The position numbers and the translations under genes were made by a program. Shown here piece by piece: positions 1-8,399 of a stretch of DNA of 8,399 bases (positions are counted from its first letter, which is position 1; each line of letters opens with the position of its first letter). Origin of the DNA: a virus (taxonomy: Duplodnaviria > Heunggongvirae > Uroviricota > Caudoviricetes). The notes beneath the pieces were generated by a model. The model was not told the origin of the DNA. It did no database searches and was given only the letters and a program-made list of their open reading frames with translations. The DNA lies in the IMG/VR virus record IMGVR_UViG_2671180577_000022, positions 1 to 8,399 of that record; one strand, 5' to 3'.

Positions 1-27
1 CATTCCAGCAACGGATCTGGAGGTAAT

Positions 28-1077
28 GTGCGGGTATTACTTCGACCTGTTCTGGTACCGGAACTCGGTCTGGTTATCGTTAAGCCAGGCCGTGAATCAA
101 TGTCAGCATTCCATAACGGCAGAATACTGGTGGAGCCGGAACCAAAAAGCATGCGAGCTCTGCCGTCCGGGGTTGTACCTGCCGTTCACCAGCCGCTGGC
201 GGAAGATAAATCACTACTGCCATTTTTCAGCGATGAGCGGGTGATCCGTGCTGCGGGTGGCGCTGGTGCACTGTCTGACTGGTTATTACGTCACGTGAAA
301 TCCTGCCAGTGGCTACACGGTGATTATCATCACAGCGAAACCGTCATTCACCGTTACGGTACCGGCGCGATGGTGTTGTGCTGGCACTGCGACAACCAGC
401 TGCGGGAGCAGACATCTGATTCACTGGATCAACTTGCTCAACAGAATCTGGCCGCCTGGATGATTGACATCATCCGTCACGCAATGAATGGCGCACAGGA
501 GCGTGAATTATCTCTGGCTGAATTATCCTGGTGGGCGGTCCGCAATCAGGTGGCGGACGCGCTACCGGAAGCGGTATTACGTCTTTCGCTGGGGTTGCGT
601 GCGGAAAAAATCCGCTCCGTATACCGTGAAAGCGACATCATACCGGGAGAACAGACCGCCACCAGCATACTGAAGCAGCGCACAAAAAATATTGCGCTAC
701 CGTCTCACACCCACCAGCAACAGAACCCACCACAGGAAAAGACGGTGGTCAGCATTGCCGTTGATCCGGAGTCTCCGGAATCCTTCATGAAACGACCTAA
801 ACGTCGCCTCTGGGTAAATGAGAAATACACACGCTGGGTAAAGACACAGCCGTGTGCGTGTTGTGGTAAGCCAGCGGACGATCCTCATCATCTGATTGGT
901 CATGGTCAGGGCGGAATGGGAACAAAATCCCACGATATTTTCACGCTACCGCTGTGTCGGGAGCATCACAACGAGCTTCATGCGGATCCGCTGGCGTTCG
1001 AAGAAAAGCATGGTTCCCAGGTTGATTTAATTTTTCGTTTTCTTGATCACGCTTTTGCAACCGGCGTGCTCGGGTAA
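28..1077 (+). CDS. DUF968/YdfU-like prophage protein (349 aa) with Cys/His-rich C-terminus
   Basis: Long ORF starting at GTG 28 with GGAGG at 20-24; frame is open to the window start so the true start could lie upstream or at ATG 100. Length matches the 349-aa Qin prophage YdfU as I recall it. C-terminus shows PCACCGKP ... DDPHHLIGHG ... LCREHHNELH, an HNH/zinc-finger-like cluster. Stop TAA 1075-1077 lies 12 nt before rusA. Confidence 0.75.
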   Translation: MRVLLRPVLVPELGLVIVKPGRESMSAFHNGRILVEPEPKSMRALPSGVVPAVHQPLAEDKSLLPFFSDERVIRAAGGAGALSDWLLRHVKSCQWLHGDYHHSETVIHRYGTGAMVLCWHCDNQLREQTSDSLDQLAQQNLAAWMIDIIRHAMNGAQERELSLAELSWWAVRNQVADALPEAVLRLSLGLRAEKIRSVYRESDIIPGEQTATSILKQRTKNIALPSHTHQQQNPPQEKTVVSIAVDPESPESFMKRPKRRLWVNEKYTRWVKTQPCACCGKPADDPHHLIGHGQGGMGTKSHDIFTLPLCREHHNELHADPLAFEEKHGSQVDLIFRFLDHAFATGVLG

Positions 1078-1089
1078 AAGAGGTTACTG

Positions 1090-1461
1090 ATGCGTATAGA
1101 GTTTGTTTTGCCTTACCCGCCGACGGTGAACACCTACTGGCGACGTCGTGGCAGCACATATTTTGTATCAAAAGCCGGTGAGCGTTATCGCCGGGCTGTG
1201 GCGCTTATTGTTCGCCAGCAGCGGCTGAAATTAAGCCTGTCCGGACGGCTGGCAATAAAAATTATTGCAGAACCACCGGATAAGCGCCGCCGTGACCTGG
1301 ACAACATTCTGAAAGCACCGCTGGATGCGCTGACGCATGCGGAAGTGCTCATTGATGACGAGCAGTTTGATGAAATCAATATTGTGCGCGGTCAGCCTGT
1401 GCCAGGTGGACGGCTGGGCGTGAAGATTTACGAAATCAGAGGTGGTAACGATGGCGCGTGA
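1090..1461 (+). CDS. rusA: RusA-family Holliday junction resolvase
   Basis: 123-aa ORF with AAGAGG 7 nt upstream of ATG 1090. Protein carries the RusA-type acidic catalytic core ([20 protein letters not shown]) and is the size of RusA (~120 aa). It sits immediately upstream of Q as in DLP12 and phage 82. Confidence 0.9.
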
Positions 1462-1822
1462 TATCCAGATGGTTCTTGAGCGATGGGGGGCATGGGCAGC
1501 AAATAATCATGAAGATGTAACATGGCCCTCGATAGCTGCTGGTTTTAAAGGATTAATCCCGACTAAAGTGAAATCACGTCCTCAGTGTTCTGATGATGAC
1601 GCCATGATAATTTGTGGTTGTATGGCACGATTAAACAAGAATAATCAGTATTTGCACGATTTGTTGGTGGATTATTACGTAGGTGGAATGACATTTATGG
1701 CTCTTGCACGTAAGCATAGATGTTCTGATGGGCTTATTGGTAAAAGGCTTTATAAAGCGGAAGGTATTATTGAAGGAATGCTTATGGCTCTGAATGTCCG
1801 GTTAGATATGGATATGCGGTAG
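1451..1822 (+). CDS. Q: Late-gene antiterminator Q (phage 82 / QuuD type)
   Basis: ATG 1451 ([23 protein letters not shown]...) preceded by GAGGTGG and overlapping the rusA stop (ATGGCGCGTGA), consistent with translational coupling. The ORF track starts at GTG 1442 in the same frame. Protein resembles E. coli QuuD as I recall it ([21 protein letters not shown]...), ~125 aa. Confidence 0.85.
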
Positions 1823-1913
1823 GGATATATAGTGATGAGGGTTATGTTTTCCGTGTTTATAATTAACATGTTTATTTTTTGATGGTCATGTATTGTGGAA
1901 GGTAGATAAAATG

Positions 1914-1942
1914 TTGCCTGGTGAATTGAAAATATTGATAAT
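1914..1942 (+). promoter_or_regulatory. Candidate sigma70 promoter (possible pR'-like late promoter) upstream of the CPBP gene
   Basis: TTGCCT (1914-1919), 17-nt spacer, GATAAT (1937-1942), about 30 nt upstream of the CPBP start. A second candidate has a perfect -10 TATAAT at 1858-1863 with a weak -35. Position just downstream of Q matches where pR'/qut lie in lambdoid phages. Not verified. Confidence 0.35.
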
Positions 1943-1973
1943 CAATCTTCATCATTAAATAAAAGGAGTGCTT

Positions 1974-2792
1974 ATGTGGATTGTGTTAGTACTGTCACTG
2001 TCAACTCTCAGTTGGCATAAGGTAGTGGCTTTTTCATTGTTGACGGTGTCTGTTGTCCTGGCTGTGCTTAATGATATTATTGATTGGTCGGTGTTATTTT
2101 TTGTTGCTACAATCGTTTTTTTTATTATTTTGAAGTTCAACTGGAAATATAACGCCTGGGCTAAATCTATATATGAAGTTGGCATAGTTTTATCAGCCAT
2201 AGCATTATCTTTCCATCTATGGCCAGGGTTTCACAATCCTGTAGTGCTAAATTCTGTTACTGTTGGCCCTCAAAGTACTCCCTATACAATGTATTTTAAT
2301 TTTGATAAAGCGCTGGTGCCATTTTTGTTAGTCCTGTGTACATCTTCTTTGTTTAAAAAAGAAGTAAAATCAGAAGTGTCTTTGTGGAAGTGGGGGGCTC
2401 TGTCGCTCTCTGTTCCTCTTATCCTGTTTTTGGCTGTTTTTTTTGGTGGATTAAAGCCAGAGATTCATTTTCCTGAGTGGTTGCCAGAGTTTATATTGGC
2501 TAATTTGTTTTTTGTGTCTCTGGCAGAGGAATCATTATTTAGAGGGTATATTCAATCACGGCTATCAGAAGTAACGTCTCCATTGGTTGCATTAATTGTG
2601 GCGGCTTTGTTGTTTGGTTTTTATCACTATTCAGGTGGTGCTTTACTTGTATTATTTGCCACGTTATCTGGTGTTGTGTATGGATTGTCATGGATGTGGA
2701 GTGGGCGTTTGTGGGTTGCCACCCTTTTCCATTTTGGTTTGAATCTGTGTCACTTGTTATTCTTTACCTATCCATTTTTAAAACATAATTGA
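1974..2792 (+). CDS. CPBP-family (CAAX protease / Abi-type) intramembrane protease, polytopic membrane protein
   Basis: ATG 1974 with GGAG 5 nt upstream (ORF track starts at in-frame GTG 1968). Highly hydrophobic multi-TM sequence. All three CPBP/PF02517 signature motifs are present: EExxxR (AEESLFRGY), FxxxH (LFGFYHY) and HxxxN (FHFGLNLCH). Visibly AT-rich compared with flanking core genes. Confidence 0.8.
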   Translation: MWIVLVLSLSTLSWHKVVAFSLLTVSVVLAVLNDIIDWSVLFFVATIVFFIILKFNWKYNAWAKSIYEVGIVLSAIALSFHLWPGFHNPVVLNSVTVGPQSTPYTMYFNFDKALVPFLLVLCTSSLFKKEVKSEVSLWKWGALSLSVPLILFLAVFFGGLKPEIHFPEWLPEFILANLFFVSLAEESLFRGYIQSRLSEVTSPLVALIVAALLFGFYHYSGGALLVLFATLSGVVYGLSWMWSGRLWVATLFHFGLNLCHLLFFTYPFLKHN

Positions 2793-2933
2793 TTTTTTCT
2801 ATGGTTTTAAATTTATAAGACTGAAAAATAGCAGGACGTGACATTTGCATGAAAAATATGCACGGCAAAGCATTTACGTACGTAAAAAATCAGGTATGCT
2901 GTTAAGAGTGGTTATTTCGCCGCATAGCTTGAC

Positions 2934-2956
2934 CCCGCCTCTGAGCGGGTTTTTTG
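2934..2956 (+). terminator. Candidate Rho-independent terminator downstream of the CPBP gene
   Basis: Stem CCCGC (2934-2938) / GCGGG (2945-2949), 6-nt loop, followed by TTTTTT (2950-2955). Short GC stem, so moderate strength. Confidence 0.5.
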
Positions 2957-3078
2957 TGCCCGCAAAGTAGCGCAGTGCGTTAAATGTGCTGGTAGTTATT
3001 AATACAGGTCTTTCAGCTTGCTGGCTTTTTCGGCAAGAGTTATTGGTGTGTCACGTTAACCGGAAAGGGTAAAAAGAC

Positions 3079-3276
3079 ATGCTGAAACAGCAGGATATGA
3101 CAGAAACCGCCAGAGTTGTGTTTGATGAATTAAGCGTCACCGAACCGGCGACAGTCGGGGAGATTGCGCAGAATACTTACCTTTCACGCGAACGCTGCCA
3201 GTTAATACTGACCCAGCTTGTTATGGCGGGTCTGGCAGACTATCAGTGCGGTTGTTACAGACGCCTTCAGTCCTGA
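3079..3276 (+). CDS. Small winged-helix DNA-binding protein, PapI/FaeA-like (65 aa)
   Basis: ATG 3079 with GGAAAGGG upstream. Central segment TVGEIAQNTYLSRERCQLILTQLVMAGLA follows the PapI/FaeA-type pattern (T-x-EIA ... S ... L-x-x-L-x-x-AG). Stop overlaps an intrinsic terminator. Confidence 0.6.
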   Translation: MLKQQDMTETARVVFDELSVTEPATVGEIAQNTYLSRERCQLILTQLVMAGLADYQCGCYRRLQS

Positions 3277-3288
3277 AGGCTTTTTTAT
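3263..3288 (+). terminator. Candidate Rho-independent terminator after the small wHTH gene
   Basis: Stem GCCTTCA (3263-3269) / TGAAGGC (3274-3280), loop GTCC, followed by TTTTTTATTT. Confidence 0.55.
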
Positions 3289-3413
3289 TTGTGGTAAATG
3301 GGCGGCTGGTGGGTGTTAGCGGCACCTGTCAGTCCTTTGCTTATGTGTTGATGATAATTTACCTTTTGGGGCTATAATTGAACTAACCAATTGCTAATGA
3401 AAGTAAAATTATA

Positions 3414-4127
3414 ATGGTTGTTGTCTGTTCAGTTATCATGGTTTGCTCCCCAATTAATATTTTTCTTGAAAAGGATACGTTGTCACTTAAGCCCGGCTCA
3501 GTCGTTCTGGCCACCAAATGCATCAGGGCGCTTTTCCTTATGCATTATGGCAAAGTTAAAATTTTCGATATAAACCATTCCATAGTAAGTCAATATCTGG
3601 AAATTCAGCATAAGCTGACAAGAACTCATCTGACTGACGTTCCGCTTTATCTGTCACTGGAACCCAACAACCCTGCGTTGGCTGAGGCTTTAATTACCAG
3701 CCAGAGATTTTCCGGAGATACCACGGATATGTTTCTTATGATGGCATGCCTGTCGCTGTTTGAATCAGATGAACGGATATTATTATTTTTAAGTGGATGT
3801 TTATCCAGTATAAGTGCCAAAGTCAGGGCGATAATTCAGACAGATATATCAGCAAGCTGGACGCTTGGTGCGATTGCGTTACGCCTGCATATGAGTGAGA
3901 GTTTGTTAAAGATAAAACTGAAAAATGAAGGGCACATGTTCAGTCGCTTGTTGCTGGAAGAGCGGATGCGTGTTGCTGTGAATATGTTATGTTCCCGGCA
4001 TGGATATGGACAGGCTGTAGCAGAAAAATGCGGTTATTCAAGCTGGTCCTACTTTATTTCTGTATTTCACCGCTATTATGGCTTCCCGCCAGACAGATAT
4101 GTATCCAGGCAAGGGCTTGATTATTGA
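3414..4127 (+). CDS. AraC/XylS-family transcriptional regulator (prophage-encoded; start uncertain)
   Basis: C-terminal ~100 aa form a typical AraC-type double HTH (WTLGAIALRLHMSESLLKIKLKNEGHMFSRLLLEERMRVAVNMLCS ... CGYSSWSYFISVFHRYYGFPPDRY). No good SD precedes any candidate start (3414, 3438, 3540), so the N-terminus is uncertain. AT-rich, as is usual for H-NS-silenced AppY/YdeO/GadX-like regulators. Confidence 0.75.
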   Translation: MVVVCSVIMVCSPINIFLEKDTLSLKPGSVVLATKCIRALFLMHYGKVKIFDINHSIVSQYLEIQHKLTRTHLTDVPLYLSLEPNNPALAEALITSQRFSGDTTDMFLMMACLSLFESDERILLFLSGCLSSISAKVRAIIQTDISASWTLGAIALRLHMSESLLKIKLKNEGHMFSRLLLEERMRVAVNMLCSRHGYGQAVAEKCGYSSWSYFISVFHRYYGFPPDRYVSRQGLDY

Positions 4128-4155
4128 TTTTCATCTGATTATTATTTTTTGACCC

Positions 4156-4231
4156 GGCCCTTTAGCTCAGTGGTGAGAGCGAGCGACTCATAATCGCCAG
4201 GTCGCTGGTTCAAATCCAGCAAGGGCCACCA
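4156..4231 (+). tRNA. ileZ: tRNA-Ile2 (anticodon CAU, lysidine-type; formally also Met-like)
   Basis: Manual cloverleaf: acceptor GGCCCTT/AAGGGCC, D-stem GCTC/GAGC, anticodon loop CTCATAA, T-loop TTCAAAT, encoded CCA. Close to E. coli ileX as I recall it. One A-C mispair at 27-43. Confidence 0.85.
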
Positions 4232-4238
4232 TCACATA

Positions 4239-4315
4239 CCGCCATTAGCTCATCAGGAAAGAGCGCCAGCTTTCGAAGCTGGTTGCGCGGAGTTCGGGTC
4301 CCCGAAGGCGGTCCA
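4239..4315 (+). tRNA. argN: tRNA-Arg (anticodon UCG), non-canonical; possibly degenerate
   Basis: Manual fold: D-stem GCTC/GAGC, anticodon stem CCAGC/GCTGG with loop TTTCGAA (anticodon TCG), encoded CCA. Has an A-A mismatch at acceptor 6-67, an A-C mismatch in the T-stem, and T-loop TTCGGGT (G at the normally A58 position). Position between ileZ and argO matches the Stx-phage tRNA cluster. Confidence 0.5.
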
Positions 4316-4328
4316 TTATCTGTATCCT

Positions 4329-4405
4329 GCGTTGTTAGCTCAGCCGGACAGAGCAATTGCCTTCTAAGCAATCGGTCACTGGTTCGAATCCAGTACAACG
4401 CGCCA
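4329..4405 (+). tRNA. argO: tRNA-Arg (anticodon UCU), reads AGA/AGG rare codons
   Basis: Perfect cloverleaf: acceptor GCGTTGT/ACAACGC, D-stem GCTC/GAGC, anticodon stem ATTGC/GCAAT with loop CTTCTAA, T-arm ACTGG-TTCGAAT-CCAGT, encoded CCA. Confidence 0.85.
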
Positions 4406-4419
4406 CACTTATTTTCCCT

Positions 4420-4445
4420 GGCTCGCTTTTGTGGGCCTTTTTTTT
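4420..4445 (+). terminator. Candidate Rho-independent terminator following the tRNA cluster
   Basis: Stem GGCUCGC / GUGGGCC (7 bp including two G-U wobbles), loop TTTT, followed by a run of 8 T (4438-4445). Confidence 0.5.
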
Positions 4446-4499
4446 AAATGTCTCACAATTCAGGCGGTTGACTGTTGTCTGGTTTGCGGGGAGTTTGTT

Positions 4500-4676
4500 A
4501 AAAGAAACTGGCATGGTGAATCCCCCTGTGCGGAGGGGCAATCAGCGAGTAGGTATATGGGATAATCGCGGATTCAGGTGCTGGTACTGAATTCACCGGG
4601 AGGCACCCGGCACCATGCAATGGCACATAGCGCCACTCTCCAGCCCCTCTCCGGAGGGGCTGTTTATATTGATTTT
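4500..4676 (+). ncRNA. Candidate structured small RNA or multi-hairpin regulatory element ending in an intrinsic terminator
   Basis: Four consecutive stem-loops with no ORF: CCCCT/AGGGG (4522-4537); GGATTCAG/CTGAATTC (4570-4594); CCGGG/CCCGG (4596-4610); AGCCCCTC/GAGGGGCT (4642-4661) followed by a T-rich tail GTTTATATTGATTTT. The first and last hairpins share a CGGAGGGGC core. Confidence 0.3.
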
Positions 4677-4696
4677 GTCAGATGTGAGTAAACTCC

Positions 4697-5032
4697 TTAT
4701 GGACTTTGTTGTTTTAGCCCATAAGGACATATTTGCAGAGTGCAACGGTTATTAAAGCATTCATTCAATACGTTATCTGTATTTGTAGGGCATTCCTGGC
4801 TGTTTTTGATTAAATTCCAGAATGTTTTATTGAATGGTACTACGTTGTAAATGGTTACAGGTAGCACTTTGTTATTGAGCATGATGCCTGTGTGAGTCAG
4901 TGTAAATATACTTTCAGGAGGTAAGAAAGCATCCGATTGATACCAGATTATTAATTTTATTTTACTCCATATGACTGAAAAAGATATTCCGCATGATGGC
5001 TGGATAACTGTATCAATCACAATCCACTTCAT
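4697..5032 (-). CDS. Hypothetical orphan protein (111 aa), only minus-strand gene candidate in the window
   Basis: 111-codon ORF in very AT-rich DNA, where stop codons are frequent by chance. Minus-strand start context AAGGAAACTAAATG gives a plausible SD with ~5-nt spacing. No recognisable motif, signal peptide or lipobox. Confidence 0.4.
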
Positions 5033-5052
5033 TTAGTTTCCTTGTTTATGCC

Positions 5053-5080
5053 TTGCTGGTGATGTTCTGAAAAGTATAAA
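5053..5080 (+). promoter_or_regulatory. Candidate sigma70 promoter upstream of nanS-p
   Basis: TTGCTG (5053-5058), 16-nt spacer, TATAAA (5075-5080) in the AT-rich intergenic region; a divergent promoter for the minus-strand ORF may share this region. Unverified. Confidence 0.3.
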
Positions 5081-5277
5081 TGATATTTTTGATTGTAAAC
5101 CATAGAGCAGAATTATTTTTCTGATGTTGTTTATTGTTTATTTAAATGCAGGGTGGTTTATATCTCGTCTTGTAGTTTATCCATGCATATCTGCTTGATG
5201 ATGAGGTTTTTATTTAAGGTATGGTTTTGTGTTTTTTCTGTATTACATGTCAGGTATTTTAAAGAATCATTTTTCAG

Positions 5278-7146
5278 ATGGTGGAAAGAACCATGGCATT
5301 TAAACACTATGATGTTGTCAGGGCGGCGTCGCCGTCAGATCTTGCGGAAAAGCTGACACATAAACTGAAAGAGGGCTGGCAGCCGTTTGGTAGTCCGGTG
5401 GCCATAACCCCTTATACCCTGATGCAGGCGATTGCAGCAGAAGGTGATGTGGTGGTCAGTGGTGCAACTGAGCCGGATTGGTACTACGTCATCGTACTGG
5501 CCGGGCAGTCCAATGCCATGGCTTACGGTGAAGGGCTTCCGCTGCCGGATTCATACGATGCGCCCCATCCGCGCATTAAGCAACTGGCCCGTCGTAACAC
5601 AGTGACTCCCGGTGGTGAAGTATGCGTATTTAACGACATCATTCCTGCTGACCATTGTCTGCATGATGTTCAGGATATGAGTACGATTAACCATCCCCGG
5701 GCTGACCTGAGCAAAGGGCAGTACGGCTGTGTCGGACAGGGCTTACATATTGCCAAAAAACTGCTTCCGTATATCCCTAATAACGCGGGGATCCTGCTGG
5801 TACCATGCTGTCGTGGTGGTTCGGCATTCACCCAGGGCACGGAGGGGACATTCAGCGAGTCCACGGGGGCCAGTCAGGATTCGGCTCGCTGGGGAGTGGG
5901 TAAGCCGTTATATCAGGATCTGCTTTTCCGCACGAAGGCAGCATTGCAGAAAAACCCGAAAAACGTTTTGCTGGCGATATGCTGGATGCAGGGGGAATTC
6001 GATATGACGAATGCCAGTTACGCCCAGCAGCCAGCAGCATTTCTTGCAATGGTACAGCAGTTCCGTGCTGACCTTGCCGGGCTGGCGGCGCAGTGTCACG
6101 GTGGAAGTCCGGCATCAGTCCCCTGGATTTGTGGCGACACGACATACGCGTGGAAACAAGAACACGGTACGCAATATGAAGTGGTATATGGTGCATATAA
6201 AGGTAAAGAATCCCAGCAGATTTATTTTGTTCCCTTTATGACCGATGGTAGCGGAGTTAATACACCGACAAACAACCCGTCAGAAGATCCTGATATTGTC
6301 GGGTCTGGTTATTACGGTTCGGCATCCCGAACGAACAAAAACTGGGTATCATCAAATCGCCCGACGCATTTCAGCTCATGGGCGCGTCGTGGCATTATTC
6401 CCGATCGTATGGCAACTGCTATTCTGAACGTAGCCGGTCGCACCTTAGCCTTCATTAGTGGTAAGGCACCGGAAATCAAACCCTCGCCCGGCGGCGACAC
6501 GCCATCGGGGCCGTCTGAAGATGCATCCATACGCACAATCTCCCTGTTGCCGACAGCCGGAGACGCTGCTGCGCAGGGCTGGAGCATTAAGAATGGCGGA
6601 ATTCAGTTGTCGGGTGGTGTATTTAAGATCGCCAAGCAGAGCAATAAAACCTGGTCCCTGACGCGCCCGGTGGATGACGCAGTCTCCCTGCTGACACGGG
6701 GTGGCAGACTGAGCTGTAAGTTTCGACTGTCAGGCGCACTGACCAACAACCAGTTCGGTCTGGGAATTTATCTGTATACCGATGTAGCGTTACCTGACGT
6801 CGTGGCGATGACCGGGACTGGTAACCCGTTCCTGATGTCGTTCTTCACCCAGACCACAGACGGCAAACTGAATCTGATGCATCACAAGAAAGCCGGAAAC
6901 ACAAAGTTGGGCGAGTTCGGGAATTACAGTAACGACTGGCAGACGCTGGAGCTGGTGTTCACCGCCGGCAGTGCCACGGTTACTCCGAAACTGAATGGAG
7001 TGGCTGGCCCGGCATTCCAGGTCATAAAAGACAGTCTGACAGTGGGACTAAATGCACTGACGCTGACGGATATTACCAAAAATGCAACGTATGGCGTTGA
7101 GATAGAAAGTCTGGTGCTGGAGATAAATGCACCGGCATCATCATAA
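5278..7146 (+). CDS. nanS-p: Prophage sialate O-acetylesterase NanS-p (N-terminal DUF1737, SGNH/SASA esterase domain, C-terminal extension)
   Basis: 622-aa ORF; alternative start ATG 5293 (MAFKHYDVV...) has the better SD (GGAAAG). SGNH/SASA active-site block [16 protein letters not shown] is present. Location just upstream of the holin matches NanS-p genes of Stx and non-Stx lambdoid prophages. Confidence 0.9.
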
Positions 7147-7231
7147 AAAGTGAGCCAGCCAAATGGAAGGTATCGTTAAACTCACCGGTAGTGTCAGTGG
7201 GTCGTCTGAGACGCCTGCATGAGTTATCAGA

Positions 7232-7262
7232 GCCATCAGTACTTAACTGGTGGCTTTTTTAT
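7232..7262 (+). terminator. Candidate Rho-independent terminator between nanS-p and the holin gene
   Basis: Stem GCCAUCAG (7232-7239) / CUGGUGGC (7247-7254) with one G-U pair, loop TACTTAA, followed by TTTTTTATTG. Confidence 0.5.
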
Positions 7263-7295
7263 TGTTGTCAGCTTCCGGATAACGGGAGACGGGGT

Positions 7296-7511
7296 ATGTA
7301 CCAGATGGAAAAAATCACAACAGGTGTGTCATACACCACGTCAGCGGTGGGAACGGGCTACTGGTTCCTGCAGTTGCTGGACAGGGTTTCCCCGTCTCAG
7401 TGGGCGGCAATAGGCGTGCTGGGGAGTCTGCTGTTTGGGCTGCTGACATATCTGACTAACCTGTATTTCAAAATCAGAGAGGACCGTCGTAAGGCGGCAC
7501 GGGGAGAGTAA
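7296..7511 (+). CDS. S: Class II holin, S21/EssQ-like pinholin (71 aa) with dual-start motif
   Basis: ATG 7296 with GGGAG 7 nt upstream. Protein [71 protein letters not shown] is near-identical to phage 21 / Qin / 933W S as I recall them. Met1 and Met4 form the classic antiholin/holin dual start. The ORF-track start at 7191 is an upstream in-frame extension. Confidence 0.9.
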
Positions 7512-7515
7512 TTCA

Positions 7516-7866
7516 ATGACTCAAAACTATGAACTGATTGTGAAAGGGATCCGCAATTTTGAGAATAAAGTTACGGTAACTTTAGCGTTACGGGACAAAA
7601 AACGCTTTGACGGTGAAATTTTTGACCTGGACATCTCGCTGGACCGTGTTGAAGGTGCCGCGCTGGAGTTTTATGAGGCAGCAGCCAGAAGGAGCATCAG
7701 ACAGGTCTTCCTGGATGTTGCTGCCGGGTTATGTGAAGGGGATGAGCAGTCGCCGGAAAAGCGCCCCGTAATTTTAGAGGCGCAGAATGTGTGGATAACC
7801 TACAAAGGAAAGCTACCAGGAAGAATTACTGGTTCTCTGAAGACTCCTCCGGAATCACAACCTTAA
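7516..7866 (+). CDS. Hypothetical phage protein (116 aa) between holin and endolysin (YdfR-like position)
   Basis: ATG 7516 lies 4 nt after the holin stop with GGGGAGAG upstream; same strand and tightly packed within the lysis cassette. Qin-type cassettes carry a small gene (ydfR) in this slot; similarity not verified. Confidence 0.6.
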   Translation: MTQNYELIVKGIRNFENKVTVTLALRDKKRFDGEIFDLDISLDRVEGAALEFYEAAARRSIRQVFLDVAAGLCEGDEQSPEKRPVILEAQNVWITYKGKLPGRITGSLKTPPESQP

Positions 7867-7929
7867 GTCACTGACCAGAACAGATAAACCTGTCCGTGGG
7901 CAGAAACCGATAAATCCTGATAAATATCC

Positions 7930-8399
7930 ATGAACGCAAAAATCAGATACGGCCTGTCGGCTGCCGTTCTGGCACTGATTGCCGTCGGTGCGCCCGCGCC
8001 TGATATTCTCGACCAGTTTCTGGATGAAAAAGAGGGTAACCACACTACGGCATACCGCGATGGTTCCGGCATCTGGACCATCTGTCGGGGGGCCACGATG
8101 GTGGATGGAAAACCCGTTTTTCCCGGTATGAAACTGTCGAAGGAAAAATGCGACCAGGTCAACGCCATTGAGCGTGATAAGGCGCTGGCATGGGTGGAGA
8201 AAAACATCAAAGTGCCATTGAGCGAACCCCAGAAAGCGGGGATCGCGTCATTCTGTCCGTACAACATTGGTCCCGGTAAGTGTTTCCCGTCGACGTTTTA
8301 TAAACGAATTAATGCAGGTGATCGCAGGGGAGCGTGTGAGGCGATTCGCTGGTGGATTAAGGACGGTGGCAGAGACTGCCGTATTCGTTCAAACAACTG
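7930..8399 (+). CDS. R: SAR endolysin (phage lysozyme R, GH24 family), 3' end truncated by window
   Basis: ATG 7930; the ORF track omits it because no stop is reached. Translation MNAKIRYGLSAAVLALIAVGAPAPDILDQFLDEKEGNHTTAYRDGSGIWTICRGAT... has a Gly/Ala-rich N-terminal SAR segment followed by a T4-lysozyme-like catalytic region. Near-identical to 933W/Qin-type R as I recall it; the SAR type pairs with the pinholin. Confidence 0.9.
   Translation, partial: MNAKIRYGLSAAVLALIAVGAPAPDILDQFLDEKEGNHTTAYRDGSGIWTICRGATMVDGKPVFPGMKLSKEKCDQVNAIERDKALAWVEKNIKVPLSEPQKAGIASFCPYNIGPGKCFPSTFYKRINAGDRRGACEAIRWWIKDGGRDCRIRSNN

Follow-up and report, generated by a model that had tools for sequence, protein, structure and literature searches.

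The DNA analysed here, called the window throughout, is a stretch of 8,399 nucleotides (positions 1 to 8,399 of the Caudoviricetes record IMGVR_UViG_2671180577_000022). Its segment from 4511 to about 4670 on the + strand is likely to be an independent small-RNA (sRNA) gene of the STnc100 family, with EcOnc27/sRNA103 of enterohaemorrhagic Escherichia coli (EHEC) and PasD1/PasD2 of enteropathogenic E. coli (EPEC) as relatives. An earlier note, made from the letters alone, had proposed a structured small RNA ending in an intrinsic terminator and had asked for an Rfam scan. A covariance-model (CM) scan identified 4482-4671 (+) as STnc100 (Rfam RF02076) at 132.4 bits (gathering score 47, E = 9.2e-30). 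The match is confined to the + strand and is untruncated, spanning model positions 1-206 of 206 and including the closing helix, the internal hairpins and the terminator (model 175-206). Together with a terminator scan, it bears out the proposed structured RNA. The limits first given, 4500-4676, hold for the hairpin content, but the best boundaries are 4511 to about 4670. Other STnc100 members score 48-208 bits against the model. The element is already known: STnc100 is a described, catalogued and experimentally detected sRNA family. Rfam names it 'Gammaproteobacterial sRNA STnc100', and many prophages of E. coli and Salmonella carry it. But what does this copy look like, where would its transcript begin and end, and which part of it does the work? 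The parts of the element are as follows.

4475-4504 (+): predicted sigma-70 promoter, with -35 TTGTCT at 4475-4480, an 18-nt spacer and an extended -10 TG-T-TAAAAG (TGTTAAAAG) at 4496-4504.
4511-4671 (+): predicted STnc100-family sRNA of ~160 nt, from the RF02076 match, with the 5' end placed after PasD2.
4511-4518 (+): 5' strand of the closing helix H1, GCAUGGUG, 8 bp with 4611-4618, enclosing the three 5' hairpins.
4522-4537 (+): hairpin H2, loop UGUGC at 4527-4531, C4522-C4526 pairing with G4532-G4533 and G4535-G4537, A4534 bulged.
4538-4569 (+): H3 around a length-variable insert, G4538-C4569 and C4539-G4568 paired, A4540-C4567 mismatched in this copy.
4541-4546 (+): 5' strand of the pseudoknot, AUCAGC, pairing with GCUGGU at 4580-4585 in the H4 loop.
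4570-4594 (+): hairpin H4, GGAUUCAG/CUGAAUUC with loop GUGCUGGUA, 4570-4577 pairing with 4587-4594.
4596-4610 (+): hairpin H5, CCGGG-AGGCA-CCCGG, 4596-4600 pairing with 4606-4610 and abutting the H1 3' strand.
4611-4618 (+): 3' strand of H1, CACCAUGC, pairing with 4511-4518.
4619-4640 (+): linker between core and terminator, AAUGGCACAUAGCGCCACUCUC, candidate seed region; the minimum free energy (MFE) fold places a 4-bp hairpin at 4621-4635.
4641-4676 (+): intrinsic terminator, a 9-bp stem (4641-4649/4654-4662) with loop CCGG and an interrupted U tail, UUUAUAUUGAUUUU.

All four stem-loops that the earlier note had described are found in the sequence (4522-4537, 4570-4594, 4596-4610 and 4641-4662), and the last is indeed followed by a T-rich tail, the terminator stem being CAGCCCCUC/GAGGGGCUG at 4641-4662, also found by the terminator scan. 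The closing helix 4511-4518/4611-4618 was absent from that list. Compared with shuffled sequence the segment is the more stably folded: z is -2.57 for 4500-4676 and -2.96 for 4511-4671, where the MFE is -69.5 kcal/mol. The sequence core said to be common to the first and last hairpins is CGGAGGGGC, at 4531-4539 and 4652-4660. It occurs exactly twice in the 8.4 kb window, where 0.05 matches are expected, and none of 200 shuffles held two or more. This 9-mer is restricted to one subset of E. coli prophage variants, the terminators of other members being unrelated, and the repeat is probably not essential. It prompted one candidate mechanism that was rejected, a riboswitch-like switch between the H2 3' arm and the terminator 5' arm. 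Such a switch is possible in some E. coli variants, but there is no conserved expression platform because terminators are unrelated or absent in other genera.

Is the fold supported by natural variation? Homologues were drawn from phage records (69-100% identity), an EPEC genome and a 21-mer scan of species-representative genomes. Sixty diverse cores, selected via the 21-mer CACCGGGAGGCACCCGGCACC, were aligned with MAFFT. Of the named structure, 84% is paired in these cores; shuffles reach 73% and slid controls 40-48%. Covariation scores 0.338, where shuffles give 0.141, and none of 500 shuffles came up to the observed value. H1, H2 and H4 together carry compensatory changes in 15 of 22 pairs. 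In H1, 90% of cells are paired and four of the eight pairs show such changes, with variants GCAUGGUG/CACCAUGC, GUGUGGUG/CACCACAC and UGCGGUG/CACCGCA. H2 is paired in 100% of cells with four compensatory pairs (e.g. CCUUUC/GAAAGG and CCUACC/GGUAGG), and H4 in 91%, seven of its eight pairs having compensatory changes. RNAalifold independently recovered the same helices and the same H2 register and added H3 (4538-4540/4567-4569), whose third pair has 24 double changes among the 60 sequences (RNAalifold columns 31-33 with 80-82). Covariation also moves the CCCCC/GGGG register of the first hairpin by one base, giving a 5-bp stem with a bulged A4534. H5 does not vary among these cores, since they were chosen by a 21-mer containing H5, and is hence uninformative here; copies lacking the exact 21-mer retain a CCGG/CCGG stem with other loops (GUAGCGA, UUAGCGC). 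Absence of covariation in the predicted helices had been named beforehand as grounds for abandoning the idea of a structured RNA. For the variable helices covariation is strong, and the refutation fails.

The pseudoknot is less easily counted. When pairs were counted on fixed alignment columns, pairing came to only 41.5%, since the register of the loop differs from one sequence to the next, and an earlier test on whole flanks was too noisy. Counted per sequence with controls, at least six contiguous pairs are present in 61% of 119 cores, compared with 12-17% in shuffled and cross-sequence controls, and helices of 5 bp or more occur in 69 different sequences. In PasD2 the pseudoknot is likewise present (AAUGAUC/GAUCAUU). 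A weak MFE hairpin at 4545-4548/4566-4569 of the window was not found to be conserved among the homologues, which support H3 and the pseudoknot there instead. The RF02076 consensus line draws two small hairpins at this place, and the only published structural treatment found used RNAalifold, a method without pseudoknot prediction (Zhu et al., 2026 preprint). The first ~108 nt form a compact junction of five helices (H1-H5), locked by a pseudoknot that covaries. It leaves almost no junction bases unpaired and has near-invariant nucleotides in its loops and junction, namely GGUGAAUC, a UNNGC loop, GCG and UCACCGGGAGGCACCCGGCACC.

Could the segment instead be what is left of a minus-strand protein-coding gene? 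RefSeq annotation (PGAP) has a 'hypothetical protein' pseudogene antisense to the sRNA, with no ncRNA feature (window 4498-4626 (-); locus L001 5062-5187; locus L129 298-539). It is entered as 'hypothetical protein, incomplete' in O55:H7 and EPEC, and a GTG-started open reading frame (ORF) of 42 aa does run through 4498-4626 (-). However, covariation preserves helices, not codons; the cores range from ~96 to 150 nt with an insert that varies irrespective of reading frame; and the CM match is strand-specific. A coding remnant is scarcely credible, and the antisense pseudogene probably belongs to a spurious ORF family that homology has propagated.

Where would the transcript begin and end? Eight homologues from E. 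coli, Shigella and phages largely retain the TTTGTTAAAA(A/G) block and, 18 nt upstream of it, a TTG(A/T/C)C(T/C) element, the consensus layout of the eight copies being TTG(A/T/C)C(T/C), 18 nt, TTTGT-TAAAA(A/G). RNA-seq and Northern blots placed PasD2 at NC_011601 741157-741328 (PMC8550237). Position 741157 is the first G of the PasD2 closing helix GCAUGGUG, 7 nt past its TAAAAA hexamer. From this estimated 5' end and the conserved promoter layout we infer that transcription of the window copy starts at G4511, and by the same analogy the RNA would be ~160 nt long and end in the U-rich tail beyond 4662. Just 5' of the predicted -35 lies a block, TCTCACAATTCAGGCGGTTGACTG (4451-4474), kept in five of the eight aligned homologues, which could be an operator or a second promoter (TTGACT 4468-4473).

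A promoter of its own also bears on another idea of the earlier note, that the RNA is a processed 3' fragment of the tRNA operon transcript, and on the related one of a read-through product. The element does lie 106 nt downstream of three tRNA genes that share its strand, and a minority of genomes have cores within tRNA arrays: a tRNA is found within 1 kb of 14 of 132 copies, always on the same strand, and at loci L088 and L079 it begins 9-12 nt past the core. Against this, a terminator with a 7-bp stem and eight T's intervenes in the window, the promoter is conserved, the 5' end of PasD2 is at the closing helix, and most phages have the element after stx1, stx2 or Q, not after tRNAs. The intervening terminator, the promoter and the non-tRNA contexts make a tRNA fragment improbable. 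An obligatory association with tRNAs, or mimicry of them, was likewise rejected, given the few copies with a tRNA nearby and the lack of a tRNA-model match. Neither ARAGORN nor the Rfam tRNA model, even at E <= 10, gave a tRNA-like signal in 4482-4671, the only tRNAs being the three at 4156-4405.

The earlier note had also named two kinds of RNA from the late region of EHEC prophages, the AsxR/AgvB anti-sRNAs and the terminated stx-leader RNA. Is STnc100 related to either? The neighbourhood would fit, since the element is a short terminated RNA downstream of a Q gene, in the part of the late region where those RNAs are found. A Q-dependent pR'-tR' leader of the lambda 6S/StxS type is likewise short and terminated and is made constitutively, starting at pR' directly after Q. 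In the window, however, Q already stops at 1822, and three morons and the tRNAs lie in the 2.7 kb between it and the element. PhiR12_2 has a promoter-terminator unit at the end of Q and STnc100 ~220 nt further on, and in Stx2 phage II an annotated pR' with its terminator precedes the tRNAs and stx while STnc100 follows them. STnc100 is thus a separate unit, far downstream of such a leader and coexisting with it in the same phages, and on account of these units beside Q it was rejected as the Q-dependent leader itself. With AsxR and AgvB (RF02703, RF02702) STnc100 has the lambdoid 'moron site' in common, and those RNAs are Hfq-associated (PMC4104026). They are 51-60 nt long, though, come from the opposite strand and are related to it neither by sequence nor by structure. 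Their Rfam models gave no match at gathering threshold in the window, nor at E <= 10 in 4100-5300, while the AsxR control was positive in Stx2 phage II. The suggested kinship did not hold up, and that the element is a Q leader or an anti-sRNA of this kind is very improbable. STnc100 is rather the sense partner of a convergent sRNA pair that contains AsxR. Tree et al. described such pairs between a moron and a conserved downstream ORF in eight Sakai prophages, with EcOnc27 sense and AsxR antisense (PMC4104026), and in Stx2 phage II STnc100 (207.7 bits) is followed directly by a convergent AsxR (88.1 bits; locus L002 3241-3293 (-)). IpeX of DLP12 is another prophage late-region RNA between Q and the lysis genes, reported to derive from a porin transcript. 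The idea that IpeX is STnc100 was rejected, the CM giving no match in NC_000913 572000-580000, the quuD-nmpC-essD region.

What is known of the relatives argues for a regulatory RNA of the late region of EHEC-type prophages, as the earlier note had supposed: discrete transcripts have been reported for homologues in this position, and Hfq binding for several. In EDL933, 11 STnc100 copies are annotated; every one has transcriptome reads, ribosome coverage is low for most, and STnc100_4 was positive on a Northern blot (PMC5331693). EcOnc27/sRNA103, overlapped by the STnc100 copy downstream of stx2B, is reported to be Hfq-bound (PMC12711010, PMC4104026, PMC7873438), and its over-expression raised fimZ and espA transcript levels (PMC12711010, PMC7873438). 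Variants of the Stx2-phage copy are among the features predictive of haemolytic uraemic syndrome, a statistical link (PMC12711010). PasD1/2 are abundant and Northern-validated, and Hfq-dependent stability is reported for Pas sRNAs; the predicted PasD seed, UGUGAG, and most chimera coordinates from RIL-seq (ligation and sequencing of interacting RNAs) fall in the linker and 3' part (PMC8550237). PasD and STnc100 have been proposed to share an ancestor (Zhu et al., 2026 preprint). STnc100 has also been detected in outer-membrane vesicles of Shiga toxin-producing E. coli.

How close is the window copy to each of these? Compared with the RF02076 family, helices, terminator module and prophage late-region position are alike and nothing disqualifies membership; this copy differs in its short variable insert and interrupted U tail. 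With EcOnc27/sRNA103 it shares family and slot, between a moron and the nanS-p ORF, but it is only ~71% identical, and in the core alone. Linker and terminator differ, and where the Stx2-phage copy is paired with convergent AsxR the window has an iraM homologue. PasD1/PasD2 resemble it in closing helix, H2, pseudoknot, H4, linker, terminator and promoter layout, and both lie directly upstream of a SASA esterase gene (esterase genes 85% identical). PasD2, however, reaches only 41.4 bits with the STnc100 CM, below the gathering score, its H5 is degenerate and its 3' module is different.

The family is far wider than these examples. Of 5426 complete E. coli genomes, 2860 contain the 261-nt query, at up to 12 places per genome; it also occurs in 285 phage records, mostly Stx-converting phages. 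The 21-mer CACCGGGAGGCACCCGGCACC (4594-4614, holding H5) marks at least 120 stretches in species-representative genomes of many Enterobacterales genera. Across these genera the core is kept while linkers and terminators are swapped or absent. The modules are also reassorted among phages: the window, the Stx1 phage and PhiR12_2 have a common linker and terminator though their cores differ, and the 3' module of Stx2 phage II is another one. Some 21-mer matches bear the labels Prolixibacteraceae, Mucilaginibacter and Vagococcus on enterobacterial-type sequence, two of them on contigs below 2 kb (loci L020, L050, L057 and L076, Streptomyces included). The matches labelled with the first three names are probably contamination; in the Streptomyces match, L050, the 21-mer is present and a recognisable core upstream of it was not found. 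In an Enterobacter prophage region, Rfam isrI matches stand beside STnc100 copies and a tRNA (locus L025 6864-7657), which suggests further clustering of sRNA genes at the STnc100 site.

Outside the phage setting, about 16 loci in Kosakonia, Klebsiella, Raoultella and Enterobacter have cores (78-86 bits to STnc100) ~200 nt upstream of chromosomal kdgM, for an oligogalacturonate porin, and pelX, for a periplasmic pectate lyase (e.g. locus L015 786-995, with ORFs at 1131-1832 and 1902-3611, and locus L054 1822-2030). This context is non-prophage, and only weak terminator-like hairpins follow the core. A link to sialic acid, joining the NanS-p esterase to a KdgM/NanC-type porin, was considered and is unsupported, the porin loci being kdgM-pelX pectin genes. 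Tandem arrays occur as well, with four cores within 1.1 kb on the Pantoea plasmid pAPP145_2 and copies interleaved with tRNAs in Citrobacter braakii (array loci L042 894-2010, L079 3717-5512, L127 223-798 and L088 4776-5127).

What is the function of so elaborate a core? One explanation, compatible with an sRNA gene of the STnc100 family, is that the conserved 5' domain is the functional unit, binding a protein (e.g. CsrA) or a small ligand, with Hfq and seed activity secondary or specific to some variants. The five-helix junction with its few unpaired junction bases, near-invariant loops and covarying pseudoknot speaks for it, as do the retention of the core across Enterobacterales while linkers and terminators change, and its occurrence upstream of kdgM-pelX and in tandem arrays. 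PasD2 is, moreover, the most abundant RNA in CsrA ternary complexes (bioRxiv 10.64898/2026.08.12.744399). On the other side, the region gave no match to a riboswitch or ribozyme family of Rfam. Nor does the family conserve GGA motifs, given H5 loops such as GUAGCGA and UUAGCGC and a variable H2 bulge, and PasD has a degenerate H5 and is nevertheless abundant and active in RIL-seq. We regard the core as the functional unit as possible but doubtful. Since the pseudoknotted junction is conserved independently of the 3' module, it does suggest an unrecognised function of the core. We put forward tentatively that the ~108-nt STnc100/PasD 5' domain is a distinct structured-RNA module whose specific function, in protein or ligand binding or in a phage-host conflict at the RNA level, has been overlooked because it was filed as an ordinary Hfq sRNA.

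The position of the element raises a different question, namely whether it acts in cis. The remaining genes of the window are these.

28-1077: DUF968 gene.
1090-1461: RusA gene.
1442-1822: Q antiterminator, PF06530 by Pfam.
1968-2792: moron-type gene for a CAAX-protease/Rce1-like membrane protein.
3079-3276: moron-type helix-turn-helix-like ORF of 65 aa.
3414-4127: moron-type AraC-family regulator.
4156-4445 (+): tRNA operon with Ile/Met-CAU (4156-4231), Arg-UCG (4239-4315) and Arg-UCU (4329-4405), from ARAGORN and the Rfam tRNA model.
4697-5032 (-): convergent iraM-like gene of 111 aa, RefSeq 'anti-adapter protein IraM', 62% identical to K-12 IraM.
5278-7146 (+): NanS-p-type sialate O-acetylesterase gene (DUF1737, SASA and DUF6645 by Pfam), the conserved ORF downstream of STnc100/PasD.
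~7296-7511: class II holin gene.

The lambdoid late-region order of Q, morons, STnc100, nanS-p and lysis genes is kept in Stx1 and Stx2 phages, PhiR12_2 and EPEC. In 28 of 95 copies from other genera a holin-family ORF comes first downstream on the same strand, and in 16 a KdgM-family porin ORF; Q antiterminator families (PF03589, PF06530, DUF1133) occur among the upstream ORFs at 9 of 88 loci. This constant position between the morons and the first late genes, together with the terminator in the window and in many other copies, would suit a cis role. In lysogens the terminator and structure would then shield the esterase and lysis genes from transcription coming from upstream morons, tRNAs or stx; alternatively they would serve to process or stabilise the late mRNA. 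The short RNA would be a by-product. Yet the tRNA operon, which has a promoter-like site at 4117-4145, is already followed by a strong terminator of its own (4420-4437 and T8, 7-bp stem). Some copies have no terminator, e.g. at L088, where the core abuts the tRNA array. For insulation a terminator would do; neither a promoter of its own nor a conserved pseudoknotted fold of 110 nt is needed. An insulating role alone cannot explain the conserved fold, and we consider it unlikely that the element exists mainly for its effect in cis.

Several features of the neighbourhood deserve mention. The iraM homologue occupies the side on which related phages carry the antisense anti-sRNA (AsxR in Stx2 phage II), and homology to the anti-sRNA-bearing phages stops inside the terminator at ~4661. 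An STnc100 remnant was looked for beside K-12 iraM and none was found. The mosaic of AraC-like regulator, tRNAs, STnc100, iraM and esterase is rare, six complete E. coli genomes covering at least 80% of window 3300-5400. The AraC-family regulator presumably resembles the prophage-encoded AraC-like regulators of EHEC. Between the esterase stop and the holin start there is a terminator-like hairpin at 7232-7254 with a T-run at 7255-7260. A PasA/PasC homologue was not found in that slot (7147-7295), where EPEC has PasA.

How might an sRNA gene of the STnc100 family work in this setting? A constitutive-looking sigma-70 promoter with an extended -10 would direct transcription from the first base of the closing helix, yielding a five-helix pseudoknotted domain, the linker of ~22 nt, the intrinsic terminator and a U-rich tail. 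If the window copy behaves like its homologues, the RNA would accumulate in lysogens and bind Hfq at the 3' module, and its linker would base-pair with host and island mRNAs. The variable 3' module (linker 4619-4640 and terminator) would set target specificity and act in trans, and the conserved 5' domain would most likely be a module for stability or protein binding. The terminator may also stop transcription from the moron, tRNA and own promoters before the esterase and lysis genes, and during lytic growth Q-modified polymerase would read through it.

Some observations sit less well with such an sRNA. The site at 4475-4504, with a -10 TAAAAG that does not end in the usual T, went unlisted in the strict consensus promoter scan. 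Interruption of the U tail (UUUAUAUU) may leave termination efficiency and Hfq binding modest. The expression evidence stems from homologues. The window linker has no similarity to the PasD seed, UGUGAG being absent from AAUGGCACAUAGCGCCACUCUC, and hence no target can be named. For PasD itself, pasD1/2 show no significant change in the authors' Table S2, which sits uneasily with the reported Hfq-dependent stability (PMC8550237). Finally, the large, highly conserved pseudoknotted domain exceeds the needs of a simple seed-pairing sRNA, and because such an sRNA needs no domain of this kind, the main function could reside in the core.

What follows for the family? In annotation, the region deserves the label of an STnc100-family sRNA and not that of the antisense pseudo-coding sequence in RefSeq. 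STnc100 marks a prophage slot where regulatory RNAs gather along with virulence morons (stx, AraC-like regulators, tRNAs, iraM). Very common and highly expressed, the family offers concrete mutants in its pseudoknotted core.

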